In this document: piece by piece, positions 4,281-63,782 of the stretch
Layout: each line of letters starts with the position of its first letter
Position numbering within the stretch: position 1 is the stretch's first letter
From: Eledone cirrhosa
Lineage: Eukaryota
Reading direction: 5' to 3'
NCBI GenBank assembly: GCA_964016885.1
Contig: OZ024764.1
Coordinates: 26,102,001-26,166,000, forward strand
Length of the DNA stretch: 64,000 bases
Translations under genes and position numbers: made by a program
Notes under the pieces: generated by a model
Seen by the model: the letters and a program-made list of their open reading frames with translations, nothing else
The model's database searches: none
What the model was told of the DNA's origin: nothing

Positions 4281-5999
4281 CCCTTTAGCATTTAAACTGG
4301 CTATATCCAGCCAGAATTCTCTCGCCTCTTTCTGTTCAAACTGGCCACAACCAGTTGTTCACACTGATGTCTAGGTATTGTTCTCAAAATAAATAATATC
4401 AAAATCTCATAGATTTGATATTATGTGAGATATTATGTGAGGTAAAGCCTTTACTGTGAAAATACAATAGTATATATAGAGTAATGTAAATGTTATGTGA
4501 GATATTATGTGAGGTAAAGCCTTTACTGTGAAAATACAATAGTATATATAGAGTAATGTAAATGTTATGTGAGATATTATGTGAGGTAAAGCCTTTACTG
4601 TGAAAATACAATAGTATATATAGAGTAATGTAAATGTTATGTGTGATATTATGTGAGGTAAAGCCTTTACTGTGAAAATACAATAGTATATATAGAGTAA
4701 TGTAAATGTTATGTGAGATATTATGTGAGGTAAAGCCTTTACTGTGAAAATACAATAGTATATATAGAATAATGTAAATGTTATGAGATATTATGTGAGG
4801 TAAAGCCTTTACTGTGAAAATACAATAGTATATATAGAGTAATGTAAATGTTATGAGATATTATGTGAGGTAAAGCATTTACTGTGAAAATACAATAGTA
4901 TATATAGAGTAATGTAAATGTTATGTGAGATATTATGTGAGGTAAAGCCTTTACTGTGACAATACAATAGTATATATAGAGTAATGTAAATGTTATGTGA
5001 GATATTATGTGAGGTAAAGCCTTTACTGTGAAAATACAATAGTATATATAGGGTAATGTAAATGTTATGTGAGATATTATGTGAGGTAAAGCCTTTACTG
5101 TGAAAATACAATAGTATATATAGAGTAATGTAAATGTTATGTGAGATATTATGTGAGGTAAAGCCTTTACTGTGAAAATACAATAGTATATATAGGGTAA
5201 TGTAAATGTTATGTGAGATATTATGTGAGGTAAAGCCTTTACTGTGAAAATACAATAGTATATATAGAGTAATGTAAATGTTATGAGATATTATGTGAGG
5301 TAAAGCCTTTACTGTGAAAATACAATAGTATATATAGAATAATGTAAATGTTATGAGATATTATGTGAGGTAAAGCCTTTACTGTGAAAATACAATAGTA
5401 TATATAGAGTAATGTAAATGTTATGAGATATTATGTGAGGTAAAGCCTTTACTGTGACAATACAATAGTATATATAGAGTAATGTAAATGTTATGTGAGA
5501 TATTATGTGAGGTAAAGCCTTTACTGTGACAATACAATAGTATATATAGAGTAATGTAAATGTTATGTGAGATATTATGTGAGGTAAAGCCTTTACTGTG
5601 AAAATACAATAGTATATATAGAGTAATGTAAATGTTATGTGAGGTATTATGTGAGGTAAAGCCTTTACTGTGAAAATACAATAGTATATATAGAGTAATG
5701 TAAATGTTATGTGAGATATTATGTAAGGTAAAGCCTTTACTGTGACAATACAATAGTATATATAGAGTAATGTAAATGTTATGTGAGATATTATGTGAGG
5801 TAAAGCCTTTACTGTGACAATACAATAGTATATATATAGAGTAATGTAAATGTTATGTGAGATATTATGTGAGGTAAAGCCTTTACTGTGACAATACAAT
5901 AGTATATATAGAGTAATGTAAATGTTATGTGAGATATTATGTGAGGTAAAGCCTTTACTGTGAAAATACAATAGTATATATAGAGTAAATGCTAAAGGG
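4281..5999 (+). mobile_element. piggyBac-type MITE with an internal 72-bp tandem array (~22 units)
   Basis: TTAA|CCCTTTAGCATTTA...TAAATGCTAAAGGG terminal inverted repeats. Confidence 0.8.
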
Positions 6000-6627: not shown

Positions 6628-6965
6628 AAGAGGTGAGTTTTATTGTAGCACAATAAAGCAATGCAAATATCGGATAAGTAGCACTCTACAGTTTGTAGGA
6701 CTGGAGTATAAATAATATAAGATCAAAAGATGGTTAAAAGAGTTCCAAGTATTTTATTATGCGCATTTCAAAAACAAATATCATCATGGATGATATCTGT
6801 TGATTTCAAACTTCACTGCTCACAAGTGTTTTTTAAGCTTCATATCATGTCTCCCTATTTTATCTGATGAGAACGCAGATATCATCCCATGATGATATTT
6901 GTTTTTGAAATGCGCATAATAAAATACTTGGAACTCTTTTAACTATCTTTTGATCTTATATTATA
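6628..6965. mobile_element. Hammerhead-bearing short element, family A (Penelope-like pLTR remnant or retrozyme-like), with ~88-bp inverted arms
   Basis: Homologous to 20534-20742 and 52377-52746; flanked by (TA)n; arms 6713-6800 and 6876-6963. Confidence 0.7.
6856..6926 (+). ncRNA. Type I hammerhead ribozyme, family A
   Basis: UAUUUUAU-CUGAUGA-[16-bp stem II]-GAAA-UGCGCA-UA^AUAAAAUA; 8-bp stem I; palindromic stem III; predicted cut after 6918. Confidence 0.85.
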
Positions 6966-7141: not shown

Positions 7142-7176
<35 letters not shown>

Positions 7177-7217
7177 CGAAACATAAGTCAATTGCATGAA
7201 CTCATAACCCTTTATTT

Positions 7218-7273
7218 ACTGCTATATATATTTCGATGATAGCCATTGAATGGCTATGACCTCATCAGGCAGT
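7218..7273 (-). ncRNA. Type I hammerhead ribozyme, family C (sense to NF1)
   Basis: ACUGC-CUGAUGA-GGUCAUAGCCAU-UCA-AUGGCUAUCAUC-GAAA-UAUAUA-UA^GCAGU. Confidence 0.85.
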
Positions 7274-7479
7274 TAGTCAGTTCTTAGATATGCCAGCTCT
7301 GTGTTTATGGTGTTGATGGTATCAGAGCCTTGGGACAGATATATATATAGGTATATATTTGGCCATTTTCGATAACGAGGGGACAGCCATCATATATAGA
7401 TATAAATATATATATATTTCGTTTCTGAATTTTTTTAGCAAGATTCTTTATCTGAAAACGTGTGTTGAAACCGATATTG

Positions 7480-15624: not shown

Positions 15625-15867
15625 TATATATGTATGAATGAAGTAATTCCATCGGAAAAGTCCAGGAAAAAAGAGTGCTCTATGTAGGTAACAGAGCTTA
15701 ATTATTATTATTATGTAATAAACAACATAAGGCAATTATTTTTTTTTAAATCCAAATTCAATAAACAAACCAGGATTTTTTCATTCTGAGGATTGAAAGC
15801 AAAACCTTTTGCTTTTAAGAAACCACTGGTAAATGGAATAATTGCCTTATGTTGTTTATTACATAAT

Positions 15868-16440: not shown

Positions 16441-16506
16441 TATTTTATCTGAAGAAGGCATGCCATATTTTTAATATGGTATCCCCGAAATATGTATAAT
16501 GAAATA
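16441..16506 (+). ncRNA. Type I hammerhead ribozyme, family B
   Basis: UAUUUUAU-CUGAAGA-AGGCAUGCCAUAUU-UUU-AAUAUGGUAUCCCC-GAAA-UAUGUA-UA^AUGAAAUA; first stem II pair is an A-C mismatch. Confidence 0.75.
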
Positions 16507-16928: not shown

Positions 16929-17687
16929 CCCTTTAATGTTCAAACCGGCCAAAACCGGCCAGAATTCTCTACCTTTTTCTGTTGAAACTGGCTGTAACTG
17001 GTCACTCATACTGATGTTAAGGTATTGTTCTTAAAATAAATACTTTCAAAATCTCATTGATTCGGTATTATGTGAGATATTATGTAAGGTAAAGCCTTTA
17101 CCATGAAAATACAATAGTATATATAGAGTAATGTAAATGTTATGTGAGATATTATGTGAGGTAAAGCCTTTACTGTGAAAATACAATAGTATATATAGAG
17201 TAATGTAAATGTTATGTGAGGTAAAGACTTTACTGTGAAAATACAATAGTATATATAGAGTAATGTAAATGTTATGTGAGATATTATGTGAGGTAAAGCC
17301 TTTACTGTGAAAATACAATAGTATATATAGAGTAATGTAAATGTTATGTGAGGTAAAGCCTTTACTGTGAAAATACAATAGTATATATAGAGTAATGTAA
17401 ATGTTGTGTGAGGTAAAGACTTTACTGTGAAAATACAATAGTATATATAGAGTAATGTAAATGCTATGTGAGATATTATGTGAGGTAAAGCCTTTACTGT
17501 GAAAATACAATAGTATATATAGAGTAATGTAAATGTTATGTGAGATATTATGTGAGATAAAGCCTTTACTGTGAAAATACAATAGTATATATAGAGTAAT
17601 GTAAATGTTATGTGAGATATTATGTGAGGTAAAGCCTTTACTGTGAAAATACAATAGTATATATAGAGTAATGTAAATGCTAAAGGG
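16929..17687 (+). mobile_element. Same piggyBac-type MITE with ~9 units of 72/60 bp
   Basis: CCCTTTAATG...GCTAAAGGG|TTAA. Confidence 0.8.
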
Positions 17688-20540: not shown

Positions 20541-20742
20541 AGATCAAAAGATGGTTAAAAGAGTTCCAAATATTTTATTATGCGCATTTCAAAAACAGAT
20601 ATCATCATGAGATGATATCTGCGTTTTCATCAGATAAAATAGGAATACATGATATGAAGGTTAAAAAACACTTGTGAATAGTGAAGTTTTAAATCAACAT
20701 ATCAACATATTTTATTGTACTACAATAAAACTCACCTCCTAC
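20534..20742 (-). mobile_element. Hammerhead-bearing short element, family A, solo arm
   Basis: Shares taatataagatcaaaagatggttaaaagagttcc and taaaactcacctcctac blocks with the other copies; (TA)n flanks. Confidence 0.7.
20571..20641 (-). ncRNA. Type I hammerhead ribozyme, family A (sense to NF1, solo copy)
   Basis: UAUUUUAU-CUGAUGA-AAACGCAGAUAUCAUC-UCAU-GAUGAUAUCUGUUUUU-GAAA-UGCGCA-UA^AUAAAAUA. Confidence 0.85.
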
Positions 20743-26759: not shown

Positions 26760-28499
26760 CTAGAAAAACATTGGATATTAATGGCATTTATTTATTTAGA
26801 TATATAATAATAATAATAATAAAGTTTCTACTATTGGCACAAGGCCAGCAATTACCCCAGTGTATTACTGGTGCTATATAATAATAATAATAAAGTTTCT
26901 ACTATTGGCACAAGGCCAGCAATTACCCCAGTGTATTACTGGTGCTATATAATAATAATAATAAAGTTTCTACTATTGGCACAAGGCCAGCAATTACCCC
27001 AGTGTATTACTGGTGCTTTATTTTATCGACCCCGTAAGGATGAAAGGCAAAGTTAACCTCAGCGGGATTTGAACTCAGATCATAAAGGGACGTAACTCTA
27101 TGCTGGAAAGCATGTCCAGCCCTCTACCGATACTGCCAATTCACCACCCTTCAGATATATAATAATAATAATAAAGTTTCTACTATGGGCACAAGGCCAG
27201 CAATTACCCCAGTGTATTACTGGTGCTATATAATAATAAAGTTTCTACTATTGGCACAAGGCCAGCAATTACCCCAGTGTATTACTGGTGCTATATAATA
27301 ATAATAATAAAGTTTCTACTATTGGCACAAGGCCAGCAATTACCCCAGTGTATTACTGGTGCTTTATTTTATCGACCCCGTAAGGATGAAAGGCAAAGTT
27401 AACCTCAGCGGGATTTGAACTCAGATCACAAAGGGACGTAACTCTATGCTGGAAAGCATGTCCAGCCCTCTACCGATACTGCCAATTCACCACCCTTCAG
27501 ATATATAATAATAATAATAAAGTTTCTACTATGGGCACAAGGCCAGCAATTACCCCAGTGTATTACTGGTGCTTTATTTTATCGACCCCTGTAAGCATGA
27601 AAGGCAAAGTTAACCTCGGCAGACTTGAACGTAAAGGGCCATAATTCTATGCTGCAAAGTCTGCATGGCGTCTGACACTCTACCAATACTGCCAAACCAC
27701 AATAATTGTTTCACATGGCTTAGTGGTTAGAGCATTGGGCTTGCAATCGAACGGTTGTGAGTTCAATTCTCAGACCGGGTGATGTGTTTGTTTCCTTGAG
27801 CAAGACACTTTATTTCACATTGCTCCAGTTTACCTGGATATCTGAGGCTGCAGGTAGTGGCTTGATGTTCATTTGAACAAACTTTCCAGTTAAATAACAT
27901 CAATGATGAGACTCCAAGAATAATAATAATAATAATGATTTCTACTTTATGCACAAGGCCAGCAATTTGGGGGAGAAGAAAGTCAATTAAATCAACCCCA
28001 ATGCATTGCTGGTACTTTATTTCAGCAACCCCGTAAGGATGAATAGCAAAGCTAATCTTGGTGAGATTTGAACTCAGAAAATAAAGAGCCGGAAGAAATG
28101 CCACAAGACGTTCTATCTGACACTCTTCCTATCCCTCCCAATCTACCAACCTCAATAATAATAATAATATCTTAAGGGAAGCTGGAAGACAGAAGATTGA
28201 AGATAGAAGATGGAAGACAGAAGATGGAAGAGAGAAGATGGAAGACAGAAGATGGAAGACAGAAGATAGAAGAGAGAAGATGGAAGACGGAAGACAGAAG
28301 ATGGAAGATGGAAGACAGAAGATGGAAGACAGAATATAGAAGACAGAATATAGAAGACAGAATATAGAAGACAGAAGATGGAAGACAGAAGATGGAAGAC
28401 AGAAGATGGAAGGCAGAAGACAGAAGATGGAAGACAGAAGAGCACAGAGAGAAGTGAATAAATAAAGATGAAATGGCTAGAAATAATAAAGTAATTCAC

Positions 28500-33330: not shown

Positions 33331-33970
33331 TAATACTTTCTATCGGTCGCAACTCCAGGTAGAAGGAGCAACGTGAAATAAAGTGTCTTGCTCAAGGACG
33401 GACAGAACACATCGCCCAGTCCAGGAATCAAACTCACAACCTTCACTGGAAGCATGACCCTCCCAAAGTTTAACAATATCTGTTTCAACACACGTTTTCA
33501 GATAAGAAATCTTGCAAAACAAATTCAAAAACTTTTTTTTTTAAATATATATATATATCATCACCATCATCATCATCATCATAATCACCGTTTTACGTCC
33601 ATTCCTCCACGCTAGCATGGGTTAGACAGGTTGTCCAGTTGTGGGCAGTGTCCGGTCAGCTGACCTTGTCTAGCTCATACAGGAACTGATTTTGGCTTGA
33701 TTTCTACAGCTGGATGCCCTTCCTAACACCAACCTCATTTACAGTGAGTGCTGGGTGCTTTTTTGCCGTGGCCCCTCCACGACCACTTTGCAGTGGAATG
33801 ATAGGGACCCCAGTCCCTATCATCTCATTTCTACAGCTGAGTGAACTGGAGCAATGTGAAATAAAGTGTCTTGCTCAAGGAAACAACACATCACTCGGTC
33901 CGAGAATTGAACTCACAACCTTTCGATTGCAAGCCCAATGCTCTAACCACTAAGCCATGTGCCTTCACAC

Positions 33971-35129: not shown

Positions 35130-38100
35130 ATCATCATCATCATCATTTTACGTACGCTTTTCCCTGCTTGCAAGGGTGGGACGGGTCTTATTCAGCACAG
35201 CATCTCTCCACTCGTCACGGTCCTTCGTCATCTCCACCGTGAGCTTCAGCTATCTGAGGTCTGCTCTCACCACCTCCGCCCATGTTTTTCGTGGTCTACC
35301 TCTACCACGTCTTCCTGGCACTTCTTCACCCATCTGTCATCCTCATCACATGTCCATACCATCTCAGTCTCCTCTCCCGTACACTACAACTTGTCCCTCT
35401 TATACACAGTTTCTCTCTCAACACATCACATGTCCATACCATCTCAGTCTTCTCTCCTACACACTACAACTTATCCCTCTTATACACAGTTTCTCTCTCA
35501 ACACATCACATGTCCATACCATCTCAGTCTTCTCTCCCACACACCACAACTTATCCCTCTTATACACAGTTTCTCTCTCAACACATCACATGTCCATACC
35601 ATCTCAGTTTTCTCTCCCACACACTACAACTTATCCCTCTTATACACAGTTTCTCTCTCAACACATCACATGTCCATACCATCTCAGTCTCCTCTCCTGC
35701 ACACCACAACTTATCCCTCTTATACACAGTTTCTCTCTCAACACATCACATGTCCATACCATCTCAGTTTTCTCTCCCACACACTACAACTTATCCCTCT
35801 TATACACAGTTTCTCTCTCAACACATCACATGTCCATACCATCTCAGTCTCCTCTCCTGCACACCACAACTTGTCCCTCTTATACACAGTTTCTCTCTCA
35901 ACACATCACATGTCCATACCATCTCAGTCTTCTCTCCCACACACTACAACTTATCCCTCTTATACACAGTTTCTCTCTCAACACATCACATGTCCATACC
36001 ATCTCAGTCTTCTCTCCTACACACTACAACTTATCCCTCTTATACACAGTTTCTCTCTCAACACATCACATGTCCATACCATCTCAGTCTTCTCTCCCAC
36101 ACACCACAACTTATCCCTCTTATACACAGTTTCTCTCTCAACACATCACATGTCCATACCATCTCAGTTTTCTCTCCCACACACTACAACTTATCCCTCT
36201 TATACACAGTTTCTCTCTCAACACATCACATGTCCATACCATCTCAGTTTTCTCTCCCACACACCACAACTTATCCCTCTTATACACAGTTTCTCTCTCA
36301 ACACATCACATGTCCATACCATCTCAGTTTTCTCTCCCACACACTACAACTTATCCCTCTTATACACAGTTTCTCTCTCAACACATCACATGTCCATACC
36401 ATATCAGTCTCCTCTCCCGTACACTACAACTTGTCCCTCTTATACACAGTTTCTCTCTCAACACATCACATGTCCATACCATCTCAGTCTTCTCTCCCAC
36501 ACACCACAACTTATCCCTCTTATACACAGTTTCTCTCTCAACACATCACATGTCCATACCATCTCAGTTTTCTCTCCCACACACCACAACTTATCCCTCT
36601 TATACACAGTTTCTCTCTCAACACATCACATGTCCATACCATATCAGTCTCCTCTCCCGTACACAACTTATCCCTCTTATACACAGTTTCTCTCTCAACA
36701 CATCACATGTCCATACCATCTCAGTCTCCTCTCCCGTACACTACAACTTATCCCTCTTATACACAGTTTCTCTCTCAACACATCACATGTCCATACCATA
36801 TCAGTCTCCTCTCCCGTACACTACAACTTATCCCTCTTATACACAGTTTCTCTCTCAACACATCACATGTCCATACCATCTCAGTCTCCTCTCCTGCACA
36901 CCACAACTTATCCCTCTTATACACAGTTTCTCTCTCAACACATCACATGTCCATACCATCTCAGTCTCCTCTCCCATACACTACAACTTATCCCTCTTAT
37001 ACACAGCTTCTCTCTCAATACATCTCATGTCCATACCATCTCAATCTTCTCTCCTACACACTACAACTTATCCCTCTTATACACAGTTTCTCTCTCAACA
37101 CATAACATGTCCATACCATCTCAGTCTTCTCTCCTACACACTACAACTTATCCCTCTTATACACAGTTTCTCTCTCAACTCATCACATGTCCATACCATC
37201 TCAGTCTTCTCTCCTACACACTACAACTTATCCCTCTTATACACAGTTTCTCTCTTAACTCATCACATGTCCATACCATCTCAGTCTTCTCTCCCACACA
37301 CCACAACTTATCCCTCTTATACACAGTTTCTCTCTCAACACATCACATGTCCATACCATCTCAGTCTCCTCTCCCGCACACCACAACTTATCCCTCTTAT
37401 ATACAGTTTCTCTCTCAACACATCACATGTCCATACCATCTCAGTCTTCTCTCCTACACACTACAACTTATCCCTCTTATACACAGTTTCTCTCTCAACA
37501 CATCACATGTCCATACCATCTCAGTTTTCTCTCCCGCACACCACAACTTATCCCTCTTATACACAGTTTCTCTCTCAACACATCACATGTCCATACCATC
37601 TCAGTCTTCTCTCCCACACACTACAACTTATCCCTCTTATACACAGTTTCTCTCTCAACACATCACATGTCCATACCATCTCAGTCTCCTCTCCCGTACA
37701 CTACAACTTATCCCTCTTATACACAGTTTCTCTCTCAACACATCACATGTCCATACCATCTCAGTTTTCTCTCCCGCACACCACAACTTATCCCTCTTAT
37801 ACACAGTTTCTCTCTCAACACATCACATGTCCATACCATATCAGTCTCCTCTCCCGTACACAACTTATCCCTCTTATACACAGTTTCTCTCTCAACACAT
37901 CACATGTCCATACCATCTCAGTCTCCTCTCCCGTACACTACAACTTATCCCTCTTATACACAGTTTCTCTCTCAACACATCACATGTCCATACCATATCA
38001 GTCTCCTCTCCCGTACACTACAACTTATCCCTCTTATACACAGTTTCTCTCTCAACACATCACATGTCCATACCATCTCAGTCTCCTCTCCTGCACACCA

Positions 38101-41100
38101 CAACTTATCCCTCTTATACAGTTTCTCTCTCAACACATCACATGTCCATACCATCTCAGTCTCCTCTCCCGTACACTACAACTTATCCCTCTTATACACA
38201 GCTTCTCTCTCAATACATCTCATGTCCATACCATCTCAATCTTCTCTCCTACACACTACAACTTATCCCTCTTATACACAGTTTCTCTCTCAACACATCA
38301 CATGTCCATACCATCTCAGTCTTCTCTCCTACACACTACAACTTATCCCTCTTATACACAGTTTCTCTCTCAACTCATCACATGTCCATACCATCTCAGT
38401 CTTCTCTCCTACACACTACAACTTATCCCTCTTATACACAGTTTCTCTCTTAACTCATCACATGTCCATACCATCTCAGTCTTCTCTCCCACACACCACA
38501 ACTTATCCCTCTTATACACAGTTTCTCTCTCAACACATCACATGTCCATACCATCTCAGTCTCCTCTCCCGCACACCACAACTTATCCCTCTTATACACA
38601 GTTTCTCTCTCAACACATCACATGTCCATACCATCTCAGTCTTCTCTCCTACACACTACAACTTATCCCTCTTATACACAGTTTCTCTCTCAACACATCA
38701 CATGTCCATACCATCTCAGTTTTCTCTCCCGCACACCACAACTTATCCCTCTTATACACAGTTTCTCTCTCAACACATCACATGTCCATACCATCTCAGT
38801 CTTCTCTCCCACACACTACAACTCATCCCTCTTATACACAGTTTCTCTCTCAACTCATCACATGTCCATACCATCTCAGTCTTCTCTCCCACACACCACA
38901 ACTTATCCCTCTTATACACAGTTTCTCTCTCAACACATCACATGTCCATACCATCTCAGTCTTCTCTCCCACACACCACAACTTATCCCTCTTATACACA
39001 GTTTCTCTCTCAACACATCACATGTCCATACCATCTCAGTCTCCTCTCCCGCACACCACAACTTATCCCTCTTATACAGTTTCTCTCTCAACACATCACA
39101 TGTCCATACCATCTCAGTCTTCTCTCCTACACACTACAACTTATCCCTCTTATACACAGTTTCTCTCTCAACACATCACATGTCCATACCATCTCAGTCT
39201 TCTCTCCCGCACACCACAACTTATCCCTCTTATACAGTTTCTCTCTCAACACATCACATGTCCATACCATCTCAGTCTCCTCTCCCGTACACTACAACTT
39301 ATCCCTCTTATACACAGTTTCTCTCTCAACACATCACATGTCCATACCATCTCAGTTTTCTCTCCCGCACACCACAACTTATCCCTCTTATACACAGTTT
39401 CTCTCTCAACACATCACATGTCCATACCATATCAGTCTCCTCTCCCGTACACAACTTATCCCTCTTATACACAGTTTCTCTCTCAACACATCACATGTCC
39501 ATACCATCTCAGTCTCCTCTCCCGTACACTACAACTTATCCCTCTTATACACAGTTTCTCTCTCAACACATCACATGTCCATACCATATCAGTCTCCTCT
39601 CCCGTACACTACAACTTATCCCTCTTATACACAGTTTCTCTCTCAACACATCACATGTCCATACCATCTCAGTCTCCTCTCCTGCACACCACAACTTATC
39701 CCTCTTATACAGTTTCTCTCTCAACACATCACATGTCCATACCATCTCAGTCTCCTCTCCCGTACACTACAACTTATCCCTCTTATACACAGTTTCTCTC
39801 TCAATACATCTCATGTCCATACCATCTCAATCTTCTCTCCTACACACTACAACTTATCCCTCTTATACACAGTTTCTCTCTCAACACATCACATGTCCAT
39901 ACCATCTCAGTCTTCTCTCCTACACACTACAACTTATCCCTCTTATACACAGTTTCTCTCTCAACTCATCACATGTCCATACCATCTCAGTCTTCTCTCC
40001 TACACACTACAACTTATCCCTCTTATACACAGTTTCTCTCTTAACTCATCACATGTCCATACCATCTCAGTCTTCTCTCCCACACACCACAACTTATCCC
40101 TCTTATACACAGTTTCTCTCTCAACACATCACATGTCCATACCATCTCAGTCTCCTCTCCCGCACACCACAACTTATCCCTCTTATACACAGTTTCTCTC
40201 TCAACACATCACATGTCCATACCATCTCAGTCTTCTCTCCTACACACTACAACTTATCCCTCTTATACACAGTTTCTCTCTCAACACATCACATGTCCAT
40301 ACCATCTCAGTTTTCTCTCCTACACACTACAACTTATCCCTCTTATACACAGTTTCTCTCTCAACTCATCACATGTCCATACCATCTCAGTCTTCTCTCC
40401 CACACACCACAACTTATCCCTCTTATACACAGTTTCTCTCTCAACACATCACATGTCCATACCATCTCAGTCTTCTCTCCCACACACCACAACTTATCCC
40501 TCTTATACACAGTTTCTCTCTCAACACATCACATGTCCATACCATCTCAGTCTCCTCTCCCGCACACCACAACTTATCCCTCTTATACAGTTTCTCTCTC
40601 AACACATCACATGTCCATACCATCTCAGTCTTCTCTCCTACACACTACAACTTATCCCTCTTATACACAGTTTCTCTCTCAACACATCACATGTCCATAC
40701 CATCTCAGTCTTCTCTCCCGCACACCACAACTTATCCCTCTTATACAGTTTCTCTCTCAACACATCACATGTCCATACCATCTCAGTCTTCTCTCCTACA
40801 CACTATAACTTATCCCTCTTATACACAGTTTCTCTCTCAACACATCACATGTCCATACCATCTCAGTCTACTCTCCCGCACACCACAACTTATCCCTCTT
40901 ATACACAGTTTCTCACTCAACACATCACATGTCCATACCATCTCAGTCTCCTCTCCCACACACCACAACTTATCCCTCTCAGACAAAGTTTCTCTCTCAA
41001 CTCGTCTATGCTTGGTCGCTCATGCACATTGACATTGCACATCCAACGGTGCATGCTTGCCTCATCTCTCTCCAGCCGCCACATATCCTCTGCAGTTGCT

Positions 41101-41720: not shown

Positions 41721-42335
41721 CTGCAACATAACAACAACAACAACAACACTAGAAAAAACAACTAACACATCATCATCATCATCATTTTTACGTCCGCCTT
41801 TCCCTGCTTGCAAGGGTGGGACGGGATCTGGTTCTGGCTTGATTTCTACAGCTGGATGCCCTCCTTCCTAACACCAACCTCATTTACAGTGAGTGCTGGG
41901 TGCCTTTTTTTGCCGTGGCACCTCCACGACCACTTTGCAGTGGAATGATAGGGACCAGACCCCAGTCCCCATCATCTCATTTCTACAGCTGAGTAAACTG
42001 GAGCAATGTGAAATAAAGTGTCTTGCTCAAGGAAACAACACATCACCCGGTCTGAGAATTGAACTCACAACCTTTCGATTGCAAGGCCAATGCTCTAACC
42101 ACTAAGCCATGTGCCTCCATCACATGATGATTAGGGAAAATGGGTCATGGAGAAGGAAGCTGCAATAAAGGAGGACCTGGGCTGAGAGAGAGAGAGACTG
42201 GGTAGAAGAGGAGTGAGATGTAGTGTGCAAGAGAGAAGACTGCACTGGTAGCGACATGTGATGTGTATGGATGATGATTGTTGAAGAAGTGTCAGGAGTT
42301 CCGAGTGGAAGGAAGATGCAGTAGAGAAAAGCCAT

Positions 42336-47029: not shown

Positions 47030-48454
47030 AAAGCCTTTACCATTAAAATACAATAGTATATATAGAGTAATGTAAATGTTATGTGAGATATTATGTGAGG
47101 TAAAGCCTTTACTGTGAAAATACAATAGTATATATAGAGTAATGTAAATGTTATGTGAGATATTATGTGAGGTAAAGCCTCTACTGTGACAATATAATAG
47201 TATATATAGAGTAATGTAAATGCTATGTGAGATATTATGTGAGGTAAAGCCTTTACTGTGAAAATACAATAGTATATATAGAGTAATGTAAATGTTATGT
47301 GAGATATTATGTGAGGTAAAGCCTCTACTGTGACAATATAATAGTATATATAGAGTAATGTAAATGCTATGTGAGATATTATGTGAGGTAAAGCCTTTAC
47401 TGTGAAAATACAATAGTATATATAGAGTAATGTAAATGTTATGTGAGATATTATGTGAGGTAAAGCCTCTACTGTGACAATATAATAGTATATATAGAGT
47501 AATGTAAATGCTATGTGAGATATTATGTGAGGTAAAGCCTTTACTGTGAAAATACAATAGTATATATAGAGTAATGTAAATGTTATGTGAGATATTATGT
47601 GAGGTAAAGCCTTTACTGTGAAAATACAATAGTATATATAGAGTAATGTAAATGCTATGTGAGATATTATGTGAGGTAAAGCCTTTACTGTGAAAATACA
47701 ATAGTATATATAGAGTAATGTAAATGTTATGTGAGATATTATGTGAGGTAAAGCCTTTACTGTGAAAATACAATAGTATATATAGAGTAATGTAAATGTT
47801 ATGTGAGATATTATGTGAGGTAAAGACTTTACTGTGAAAATACAATAGTATATATAGAGTAATGTAAATGTTATGTGAGATATTATGTGAGGTAAAGCCT
47901 TTACTGTGAAAATACAATAGTATATATAGAGTAATGTAAATGTTATGTGGGATATTATGTGAGGTAAAGCCTTTACTGTGAAAATACAATAGTATATATA
48001 GAGTAATGTAAATGTTATGTGAGATATTATGTGAGGTAAAGCCTTTACTGTGAAAATACAATAGTATATATAGAGTAATGTAAATGTTATGTGAGATATT
48101 ATGTGAAGTAAAGCCTTTACTGTGAAAATATAATAGTATATATAGAGTAATGTAAATGTTATGTGAGATATTATGTGAGGTAAAGCCTTTACTGTGAAAA
48201 TACAATAGTATATATAGAGTAATGTAAATGTTATGTGAGATATTATGTGAGGTAAAGACTTTACTGTGAAAATATAATAGTATATATAGAGTAATGTAAA
48301 TGTTATGTGAGATATTATGTGAGGTAAAGACTTTACTGTGAAAATATAATAGTATATATAGAGTAATGTAAATGTTATGTTAGATATTATGTGAGGTAAA
48401 GCCTTTACTGTGAAAATATAATAGTATATATAGAGTAATGTAAATGGTAAAGGG
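47030..48454 (+). mobile_element. Same MITE, left end lost, ~19 units of 72 bp
   Basis: Array ends in AAAGGG|TTAA about 13 nt from the exon J donor. Confidence 0.8.
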
Positions 48455-52500: not shown

Positions 52501-52571
52501 TATTTTATTATGCGCATTTCAAAAACAAACATCATCATGCAATAATATTTGTGTTTTCATCAGATAAAACA
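52501..52571 (-). ncRNA. Type I hammerhead ribozyme, family A (left arm of palindrome, sense to NF1)
   Basis: Complete core and three stems; substitutions relative to other family A copies keep pairing through A-U or G-U. Confidence 0.82.
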
Positions 52572-52637
52572 GGAGAACATGTTGATTTAAAACTGCACTA
52601 TCCACAAGTGTTTTTTAGCCTTCATATCATGTTCTCT

Positions 52638-52708
52638 TGTTTTATCTGATGAAAACACAAATATTATTGCATGATGATGTTTGTTTTTGAAATGCGCATA
52701 ATAAAATA
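52638..52708 (+). ncRNA. Type I hammerhead ribozyme, family A (right arm of palindrome)
   Basis: UGUUUUAU-CUGAUGA-AAACACAAAUAUUAUU-GCAU-GAUGAUGUUUGUUUUU-GAAA-UGCGCA-UA^AUAAAAUA. Confidence 0.82.
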
Positions 52709-54096: not shown

Positions 54097-55770
54097 CCCT
54101 TTAGCATTTACATTACTCTATATACACCATTGTATTTTCACAGTAAAGGCTTTACCTCACATAATATCTCACATAACATTTACATTACTCTATATATACT
54201 ATTGTATTTTCACAGTAAAGTCTTTACCTCACATAACATTTACATTACTCTATAAACACTATTGTATTTTCACAGTAAAGGCTTTACCTTACATAATATC
54301 TCACATAACATTTACATTACTCTATATACACTATTGTATTTTCACAGTAAAGGCTTTACCTTACATAATATCTCACATAACATTTACATTACTCTATATA
54401 TACTATTGTATTGTCACAGTAAAGGCTTTACCTCACATAACATTTACATTACTCTATATATACTATTGTATTTTCACAGTAAAGGCTTTACCTCACATAA
54501 TATCTCACATAACATTTACATTACTCTATATATACTATTGTATTTTCACAGTAAAGGCTTTACCTCACATAATATCTCACATAACATTTACATTACTCTA
54601 TATATACTATTGTATTTTCACAGTAAAGGCTTTACCTCACATAATATCTCACATAACATTTACATTACTCTATATATACTATTGTATTGTCACAGTAAAG
54701 GCTTTACCTCACATAATATCTCACATAACATTTACATTACTCTATATATACTATTGTATTGTCACAGTAAAGGCTTTACCTCACATAATACCTCACATAA
54801 CATTTACATTACTCTATATATACTATTGTATTTTCACAATAAAGGCTTTACCTCACATAATATCTCACATAACATTTACATTACTCTATATATACTATTG
54901 TATTGTCACAGTAAAGGCTTTACCTCACATAATATCTCACATAACATTTACATTACTGTATATATACTATTGTATTTTCACAGTAAAGGCTTTACCTCAC
55001 ATAATACCTCACATAACATTTACATTACTCTATATATACTATTGTATTTTCACAGTAAAGGCTTTACCTCACATAATATCTCACATAACATTTACATTAC
55101 TGTATATATACTATTGTATTTTCACAGTAAAGGCTTTACCTCACATAATACCTCACATAACATTTACATTACTCTATATATACTATTGTATTTTCACAGT
55201 AAAGGCTTTACCTCACATAATATCTCACATAACATTTACATTACTCTATATATACTATTGTATTTTCACAGTAAAGGCTTTACCTCACATAATATCTCAC
55301 ATAACATTTACATTACTCTATATATACAATTATATTTTCACAGTAAAAGCTTTACCTCACATATTTACATTACTCTATATATACTATTATATTATCATGG
55401 TAAAGGCTTTACCTCACATAATATCTCACATAACATTTACATTACTCTATATATACAATTATATTTTCACAGTAAAGGCTTTACCTCACATAATATCTCA
55501 CATAACATTTACATTACTCTATATATACTATTATATTATCATGGTAAAGGCTTTACCTCACATAATACCTCACATAACATTTACATTACTCTATATATAC
55601 TATTATATTATCATGGTAAAGGCTTTACCTCACATAATTATCTCACATAATATGAGATTTTGAAAGTATTTATTTCGAGAACAATACCTTAACATCAGTT
55701 TGAGCGACTGGTTACAGCCAGTTTCAACAGAAAGAGGTAGAGAATTCTGGCCGGTTTGAACATTAAAGGG
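54097..55770 (-). mobile_element. Same MITE in inverted orientation, ~22 units, TTAA target duplication
   Basis: TTAA on both sides; interrupts a SINE whose intact form is seen at ~14200-14330. Confidence 0.85.
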
Positions 55771-58917: not shown

Positions 58918-59532
58918 CCCTTTAGCATTTAAACTGGCAGTATCCAGCCAGAGCTCTCTCACATCTTTCTGTTCAAACCAGCCATAACCGGCTGCTCATA
59001 CTGATATTAAGGTAGTGTTCTCAAAATAAATAATATCAAAATCTCAGATTTGAGATTATGTGAGATAATTATGTAAGATAAAGCCTTTACTGTGAAAATA
59101 CAATAGTATATATAGAGTAATGTAAATGTTATGTGAGATATTATGTGAGGTAAAGCCTTTACTGTGAAAATACAATAGTATATATAGAGTAATGTAAATG
59201 TTATGTGAGATATTATGTGAGGTAAAGCCTTTACTGTGACAATACAATAGTATATATAGAGTAATGTAAATGTTATGTGAGATATTATGTGAGGTAAAGC
59301 CTTTACTGTGAAAATACAATAGTATATATAGAGTAATGTAAATGTTATGTGAGATATTATGTGAGGTAAAGCCTTTACTGTGAAAATACAATATATAAAT
59401 ATAATAGTATATATATAATAGTATATATAATAGTATATATATAATATATAAATATAATAGTATATATATAATAGTATATATATAATATATAAATATAATA
59501 GTATATATAATACTAATGTAAAAGCTAAAGTG
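58918..59532 (+). mobile_element. Same MITE, ~5 units, decayed right end
   Basis: TTAA|CCCTTTAGCATTTA left end. Confidence 0.75.
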
Positions 59533-63519: not shown

Positions 63520-63585
63520 TATTTCATTATATATATTTCAGGGATATCATATTAAAAATATGGTATGCCTTCTTCAGACAAAATA
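63520..63585 (-). ncRNA. Type I hammerhead ribozyme, family B (left arm of palindrome, sense to NF1)
   Basis: Reverse complement of 63717-63782. Confidence 0.8.
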
Positions 63586-63716
63586 CAATATATAAACAGT
63601 TTTATAAATAAATTTGACATACCTTAAAATTTTACAACTTCCATTTAAAAAGTTGTTATGGAAGTTGTAAAATTTTAAGGTATGTCAAATTTATTTATAA
63701 AACTGTTTATATATTG

Positions 63717-63782
63717 TATTTTGTCTGAAGAAGGCATACCATATTTTTAATATGATATCCCTGAAATATATATAATGAAATA
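63717..63782 (+). ncRNA. Type I hammerhead ribozyme, family B (right arm of palindrome)
   Basis: UAUUUUGU-CUGAAGA-AGGCAUACCAUAUU-UUU-AAUAUGAUAUCCCU-GAAA-UAUAUA-UA^AUGAAAUA. Confidence 0.8.

Follow-up and report, generated by a model that had tools for sequence, protein, structure and literature searches.

Why should a self-cleaving ribozyme keep one pair of an otherwise well-paired helix broken? The question is raised by a hammerhead motif in the window, by which we mean the whole stretch of 64,000 nucleotides from contig OZ024764.1 of Eledone cirrhosa that was analysed. The earlier note on this DNA had described a C-pyrimidine mismatch at pair 4 of an extended stem II in three ribozyme families (here A, B and C), had taken the families to be unrelated in sequence, and had proposed a distinct structural subtype with a tertiary contact of its own.

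Hammerheads of the window

The motifs have the hammerhead core CUGANGA / GAAA / UH and three helices, and are open at stem I. Read on the minus strand from 7273 to 7218, family C has a stem I of 5 bp. Its stem II (7261–7235) begins with the pairs G-C, G-U and U-A, is interrupted by C7258·C7238 and continues with 8 bp to a 3-nt loop. Stem III is a palindrome of 8 nt (7231–7224), and descriptor scans place the predicted cut between 7223 and 7222, with A7223 as N17. Bulging a base after A9 gives another possible register, which was set aside, as by inspection the mismatch persists in it.

In the window, pair 4 is broken in all eight copies of families A to C (C·U in four of four copies of A, C·C in three of three of B, C·C in C); the earlier note had seen this in seven of them, the family B copy at 63520–63585 being absent from its list. 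No consensus of these families is paired at this position; such pairing would have told against the note's claim. Its description of stem II as long also stands, but its figure of 12–16 bp counts mismatched positions: the real totals are 11 pairs in C, 15 in A and 12 in B. A second mismatch, at pair 8, is found in the family B copies with C3 at 63725 and 63577. The break is not common to every hammerhead family of the window as had been supposed, since a fourth family, F, has a perfect stem II; F is a genuine repeat with 96 first-look candidates. In the Rfam search of the whole window, the 150 matches listed (of 154) included no hammerhead, and there was none at E ≤ 10 for 7180–7340, likely because of the long stem II.

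Positions of the features in the window (position 1 is its first letter)
Feature	Position	Strand	Core C3	Basis
Family C, predicted type I hammerhead	7218–7273	minus	7268	sequence and descriptor scans
C10.4, invariant unpaired cytosine	7258	minus		lineage and copy comparison
C11.4, opposite C10.4; other lineages have C, U or A but never G	7238	minus		lineage comparison
AAUAAA hexamer, directly 3' of the predicted cut site	7211–7216	minus		sequence
Family C insertion in a (TA)n tract, predicted 3' end of a 5'-truncated Penelope-like element	7172–7345	minus		
Family A hammerhead, C·U at pair 4	6856–6926	plus	6864	descriptor scan
Family A hammerhead, C·U at pair 4	20571–20641	minus	20633	descriptor scan
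Family A hammerhead, inverted partner of 52638–52708	52501–52571	minus	52563	
Family A hammerhead	52638–52708	plus	52646	
Family B hammerhead, C·C at pair 4, A·C at pair 1	16441–16506	plus	16449	
Family B hammerhead, inverted partner of 63717–63782	63520–63585	minus	63577	
Family B hammerhead	63717–63782	plus	63725	
Family F hammerhead, 11-bp stem II paired at position 4	15779–15838	plus		descriptor scan

Beside the copy at 6856–6926 lies an inverted family A copy (6707–6799, minus) that is truncated and has no 5' core. Some family B lineages (the window copy at 16441–16506; loci L101, L360 and L363) have A·C or A·A at pair 1, which leaves just two core-adjacent pairs, and they are possibly dead or weaker ribozymes. 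Elsewhere in the window, weak tRNA-like Rfam matches near the cut-off (27716–27773, 33900–33957, 42052–42109) are probably SINE heads, a 72-bp minisatellite occurs in five places on both strands (4421–5988, 17068–17679, 47030–48446, 54105–55650, 59056–59401), and 35344–41001 is an array of 71 units of 80 bp each.

Pair 4 across the genome

From the 3.0-Gb genome, 99 stretches of 10 kb (990 kb) were sampled: 10 next to the window, and 89 placed at round coordinates, for the most part on the smaller contigs. In this sample a general descriptor picked out 66 hammerhead-like motifs of diverse kinds, 29 of them with three pairs followed by a mismatch. The stretches were scanned a second time with the core, stem III and stem I only, so that stem II was not used, and 40 copies of the A/B/C group were obtained. 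Position 4 was paired in none of the 40, whereas positions 1–3 and 5–7 were paired in 36–38 of them. Over all loci of this genome, position 4 was paired in 0 of 91 distinct stem II sequences (drawn from 304 copies, with redundancy among loci), and C stands at 10.4 in 87 of the 91. The break is thus conserved beyond chance, as had been suggested. Copy density of the group was uneven, with a single copy in eight stretches of the largest contigs; the copy number comes to about 121,000 unweighted and about 65,000 when large and small contigs are weighted, and tens of thousands is a safe statement.

For a comparison between lineages, 298 copies were grouped by their proximal 16 letters into 22 lineages, each present in at least two distinct copies; these are not independent, and many are family B subfamilies. 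Pair 4 is unpaired in all 22 (C·C in 18, C·U in 3 and C·A in 1); pairs 3, 5 and 6, by contrast, are paired in every lineage, with 9, 6 and 7 double changes, respectively. Taking stems I and II together, 12 of 19 pairs show double changes; none of 500 shuffles scored as high, in a test that is inflated by the relatedness of the lineages, and slid controls were lower. The neighbouring pairs thus covary, and pair 4 stays unpaired.

The sole invariant column of stem II is C10.4. On the lineage tree, parsimony gave no change at C10.4, one to five at each of the other seven 5' positions and two at 11.4, and the tolerant core base N7 changed eight times. In the C·A lineage (L171:672–732, L183, L270 and L391), which has a short stem II of eight positions, one transition would restore pair 4, yet the four loci retain the mismatch. 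As the 3' partner can be A, the constant feature is C10.4 and not the C·pyrimidine combination originally named.

Element identity and common descent

Family C has 475 first-look candidates genome-wide, the best 30 of which are 98–100% identical. Of the 30 loci listed, 29 end in TA repeats, and the window copies do likewise. We rejected a discrete 174-bp SINE as its identity, since the copies at L030, L394 and L032 extend further 5'; some copies reach at least 270 nt upstream of the core. No ORF was found beside the family C copies examined. The family aligns over its whole 174 nt with a sister family, C', at about two-thirds identity, and its probable membership in the Hydra clade of Penelope-like elements (PLEs) rests on this alignment. 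Within the family C unit, 12–13 nt at 7321–7333 (plus) resemble the initiator-tRNA primer-binding site of plant LTR elements; the stretch is absent from C' and is probably a chance likeness.

Direct-repeat hammerheads flank an ORF in families B (L181), A (L265), C' (L262) and F (L180). The parent of family A has a Hydra-clade RT-EN ORF between two such hammerheads, that of family B an open RT-EN frame of 749 codons, and that of family F a frame of 718 codons from a different Hydra-clade branch. The B and F frames contain the motifs of Hydra-clade PLEs, namely an RWK-type and DKT reverse transcriptase, the CxCX5C linker and a C-terminal endonuclease with CxxC and CxH and without CCHH. The proteins of A, B and C' are 45–55% identical to each other and 38–41% identical to that of F. 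They form one clade in a FastTree of 90 rows (support 1.0) and in a quick IQ-TREE of 36 realigned rows, 24 of the 78 metagenome rows among them (SH-aLRT 99); in both trees the family B protein served as the reference for extracting the rows, and this could bias the grouping towards B. Families A to C also have stems I and III in common, so that they are not of unrelated sequence.

The A, B and C' hammerheads thus lie in repeats of Hydra-clade elements and descend from a common ancestor. For families C, D and E no parent ORF was found, and these families are provisionally placed in the clade by DNA similarity. Neighbouring ORFs at L268, L270 and L272 had no hammerhead within reach, Pfam gave no significant match for two parent ORFs, and no relatives were found in viral contigs. 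Among named proteins, the closest match was from Argonauta. A Pfam search with GIY-YIG returned mostly Neptune-like elements with other, short-stem hammerheads. A Naiad origin, considered from Craig File S1, was rejected; the parent ORFs have a C-terminal endonuclease of the Hydra type. Taken together, the elements are predicted to carry type I hammerheads in the terminal repeats of one Hydra-type PLE subclade, and there is little doubt in our view that A, B and C', and with them probably C, are Hydra-clade PLE hammerheads that share one inherited trait.

For comparison outside this genome, 78 metagenome Hydra loci were taken from the best 80 of 282 confirmed stretches. A hammerhead was present in 47 of the 78 (44 distinct), and position 4 was paired in all 26 that have room for six or more positions. 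At least eight pairs in the first nine positions were found in 10 of the 44 distinct hammerheads, all paired at position 4. A long stem II is therefore common in the Hydra clade and the mismatch is the trait of a single subclade. A long stem II does not mark out the elements that have the mismatch.

A cut at the predicted site would separate the transcript from a candidate poly(A) signal. In 21 of the 22 mismatch lineages AAUAAA or AUUAAA lies within 20 nt 3' of the predicted cut (0.0 per control window), a frequency that is partly forced by the search signature; the same hexamers occur near the cut in 15 of 36 metagenome Hydra hammerheads (loci L280–L357; 0.6 per control window). The hexamer is often the 3' strand of stem I, with equivalents in families A and B, and family F is without it. 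A literature search for a hammerhead cut beside a poly(A) signal found only a review.

Other hammerhead families of this genome, with a very long (45–50 nt), internally looped stem II and in part in tandem repeats, were seen at L085 6401 (minus), L185 8199/8658, L266 5819/6363, L360 6910 and L367 459. Retrozyme-like tandem arrays with one hammerhead-like motif per unit were observed at L149 and L267 (629-bp spacing) and at L258 (310-bp spacing).

Probable selection on C10.4

In comparisons of the A, B and C' ORFs, four-fold sites have reached saturation (8/36, 14/41 and 9/39 identical; 0.25–0.28 expected), so a free site should be scrambled by now. Together with the eight changes of N7 over the same 22 lineages, the constancy of C10.4 argues for selection on the base itself, and from these sequence comparisons we consider it probable that C10.4 is kept by selection. 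Against this, the choice of the site came after inspection of the data, 7 of 68 flank columns are equally invariant (mean 2.6 changes per column), and pair 7 is an A-U that varies hardly more. Among family C copies across contigs no other letter at 10.4 or 11.4 rises above 5%, the value for family B being 2%. Neither these values nor the near-identity of family C copies were taken as evidence of selection, several neighbouring positions being equally unvaried. A base that is fixed opposite any letter except G is the pattern of a base needed unpaired, and suggests a contact.

Possible roles of the unpaired cytosine

Animal PLE hammerheads are thought to be without tertiary contacts and to be weak cleavers. 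We tentatively prefer a mechanism in which C10.4 docks against stem I over a mechanical role of the mismatch, recognition by a protein, or neutrality. The subclade inherited an unpaired C10.4, whose base would dock on stem I where the helices pass in the active fold. With an unstable palindromic stem III the ribozyme would be active mainly as a dimer of two repeats in a tandem transcript, perhaps assisted by the element's protein; the stem III 8-mers of A, B and C are self-complementary, with +4.7 kcal/mol for the hairpin and −3.2 to −10.5 kcal/mol for the self-duplex. Stem II extends beyond the usual site of loop 2, and the 1x1 defect may supply flexibility and a free base, and with them a weak substitute contact, for which the backbone of stem I or its major groove near 1.5–1.6 are candidates. 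As canonical helix II has 4 bp before loop 2 (Cervera 2014), the defect lies one pair below the usual contact level, close to where the earlier note had put it. The only stem I bases common to all lineages are A1.6 and U2.3, the invariance of A1.6 being partly forced by the search signature.

The further claim of a dedicated tertiary contact did not find the expected marks. The canonical purine...A motif of loop 2 is absent, 10.4 being C and 11.4 being C or U in 21 of 22 lineages, and stem I is an unbroken 8 bp in families A, B and D, with no loop at the contact level. Over the 22 lineages no stem I base covaries with the mismatch, and 11.4 varies among C, U and A with stem I unchanged; contacts to the backbone or to a protein would not show in such a comparison. 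C10.4 is retained even though most stem I positions differ between C/C' and A/B/D. That family F and at least ten metagenome relatives have spread with a perfect long stem II counts against this mechanism as well. The fuller version, that the dock of a single cytosine replaced the loop-loop contact, with C10.4 gripping stem I in the dimeric fold and tuning cleavage upstream of AAUAAA, is possible but doubtful.

It seems unlikely that any mismatch would do and that what matters is a weak core-proximal helix of 3 bp. The mismatch could be a brake, leaving the 3' ribozyme mostly uncut so that the template retains downstream sequence needed for reverse transcription, or a hinge, at which the long distal hairpin bends away from stem I. 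Pairing position 4 in silico stabilised hairpin II by 4.8–6.7 kcal/mol and raised the probability of pairs 1–3 from 0.38–0.70 to 0.92–1.0, and in the wild-type minimum-energy fold of family C the 3' strand of stem II is occupied by a slipped core. Inserted copies retain the uncut motif and about 45–140 nt past it, and for a lizard PLE in vitro unprocessed RNA was the dominant insertion substrate (Frangieh 2024). Moreover, a long and near-perfect stem II was seen at 11 metagenome loci, and in 10 of these stem I is broken within 6 bp, against the 8 bp of A, B and D; however, C and C' are mismatched with a stem I of just 5 bp, and L293 and family F combine a stem I of 7–8 bp with a perfect stem II. 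Stem III should in any case make the monomer a poor ribozyme. The constant C at 10.4 is left without explanation: the nearest-neighbour model scores nearly all mismatches alike and gives C no advantage, so weakening alone does not account for it.

A comparably small chance falls to C10.4 being the point at which the element's own RT-endonuclease recognises the RNA, either chaperoning cleavage or binding the 3' end of the template. This would agree with base-specific conservation in the absence of an RNA partner and with the exact coincidence of the trait with one protein clade, and an Anolis PLE hammerhead was cleaved only when its protein was added (Frangieh 2024). However, the A, B and C' proteins share only about half of their residues, and a protein site need not sit at the interface of stems I and II.

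Somewhat less probable again is that an ancestral, tolerated mismatch looks special only through the shared ancestry of copies and families. The trait has a single origin, repair of C·C takes a transversion, and with only two changes at pair 4 the absence of G at 11.4 is unsurprising; about 10% of the flank columns are equally invariant, and relatives do without the mismatch. There was nevertheless ample time for change, judged from the synonymous saturation between A, B and C', the double changes at neighbouring pairs and the mutability of N7. That independent families converged on a subtype of long stem II with a C·pyrimidine loop is highly improbable, as A, B and C' belong to a single clade, the alignment of C with C' covers the full length of C, the trait is in none of the 26 longer-stem metagenome hammerheads and one lineage has C·A, although an uncommented 1x1 mismatch at pair 4 in 2 of the 56 representatives in Fig. 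S3 of Cervera 2014 could hint at recurrence elsewhere.

Relation to known hammerheads

In the account of Craig et al. 2021 (PMC8557442), Hydra-clade elements target (TA)n, and their 5'-truncated copies are found in tandem or inverted arrangement. The elements described here are like them in having (TA)n targets and such copies (52501–52708 and 63520–63782), a single RT-EN ORF of about 720–750 codons with RWK/RWR, DKT, CxCX5C, CxxC and CxH, and a type I hammerhead with a near-palindromic stem III in the repeat. They differ from the Hydra rows of File S2 of that paper, in which the longest stem II is 7–8 bp, Penelope-17_HM has a 3-bp stem with a 6-nt loop, and a break at pair 4 with a continuing long hairpin occurs in 0 of 26; the subclade here has 11–15 stem II pairs with a fixed unpaired C10.4.

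PLE hammerheads were described as type I, with a larger than usual helix II and a palindromic helix III, and as dependent on dimers (Cervera 2014, PMC4209133), an unstable palindromic stem III being a known sign of this dependence in that paper and in a review. Our motifs resemble those in these respects and in their dispersed single or inverted copies, but compared with the PLE hammerheads given there they have no extra base between A9 and 10.1, a helix II about twice as long, and often A-U or G-U in place of G10.1-C11.1. Variation in stem II is known: helix II of the Drosophila virilis PLE hammerhead is bulged at its middle (Cervera and de la Pena 2014, PMC4209133), Fig. S3 of Cervera 2014 shows, by eye, pair-4 mismatches in sea urchin (C·A) and liver fluke (U·U), and other variants were reported (Perreault 2011). 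In that figure the pair-4 defects are single examples, whereas here the defect is fixed across a whole subclade.

Another parallel is the CChMVd (−) hammerhead, whose contact is provided by an internal loop of domain II (Dufour et al. 2009, PMC2632901), so that a defect within an extended domain II can replace loop 2. As presented in that paper, its loop is a purine-closed 2:6 loop, the 3' A of which pairs with a U of loop 1; here the loop is 1x1 with a fixed C, there is no 3' A in 21 of 22 lineages, and A, B and D have no loop 1. No description of a conserved C10.4 mismatch was found in full-text searches of the literature, although Lunse et al. 2017, which lay outside the search, could describe such variants.

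Meaning of the conserved mismatch

The trait is a variant within a known system of ribozyme and retroelement and not a new ribozyme class. The A/B/C group is nevertheless a very abundant set of ribozymes that the Rfam models missed here, and family F provides a natural control within the same genome. If C10.4 does dock on stem I, the dock would be a tertiary motif of natural origin, not described before, of which the genome holds tens of thousands of copies. Across paralogous families C10.4 is as conserved as a core nucleotide, and it offers a one-nucleotide handle on a hidden RNA contact, a protein cofactor or a deliberate weakness, and so bears on the question of what role hammerheads have in the transposition of PLEs.
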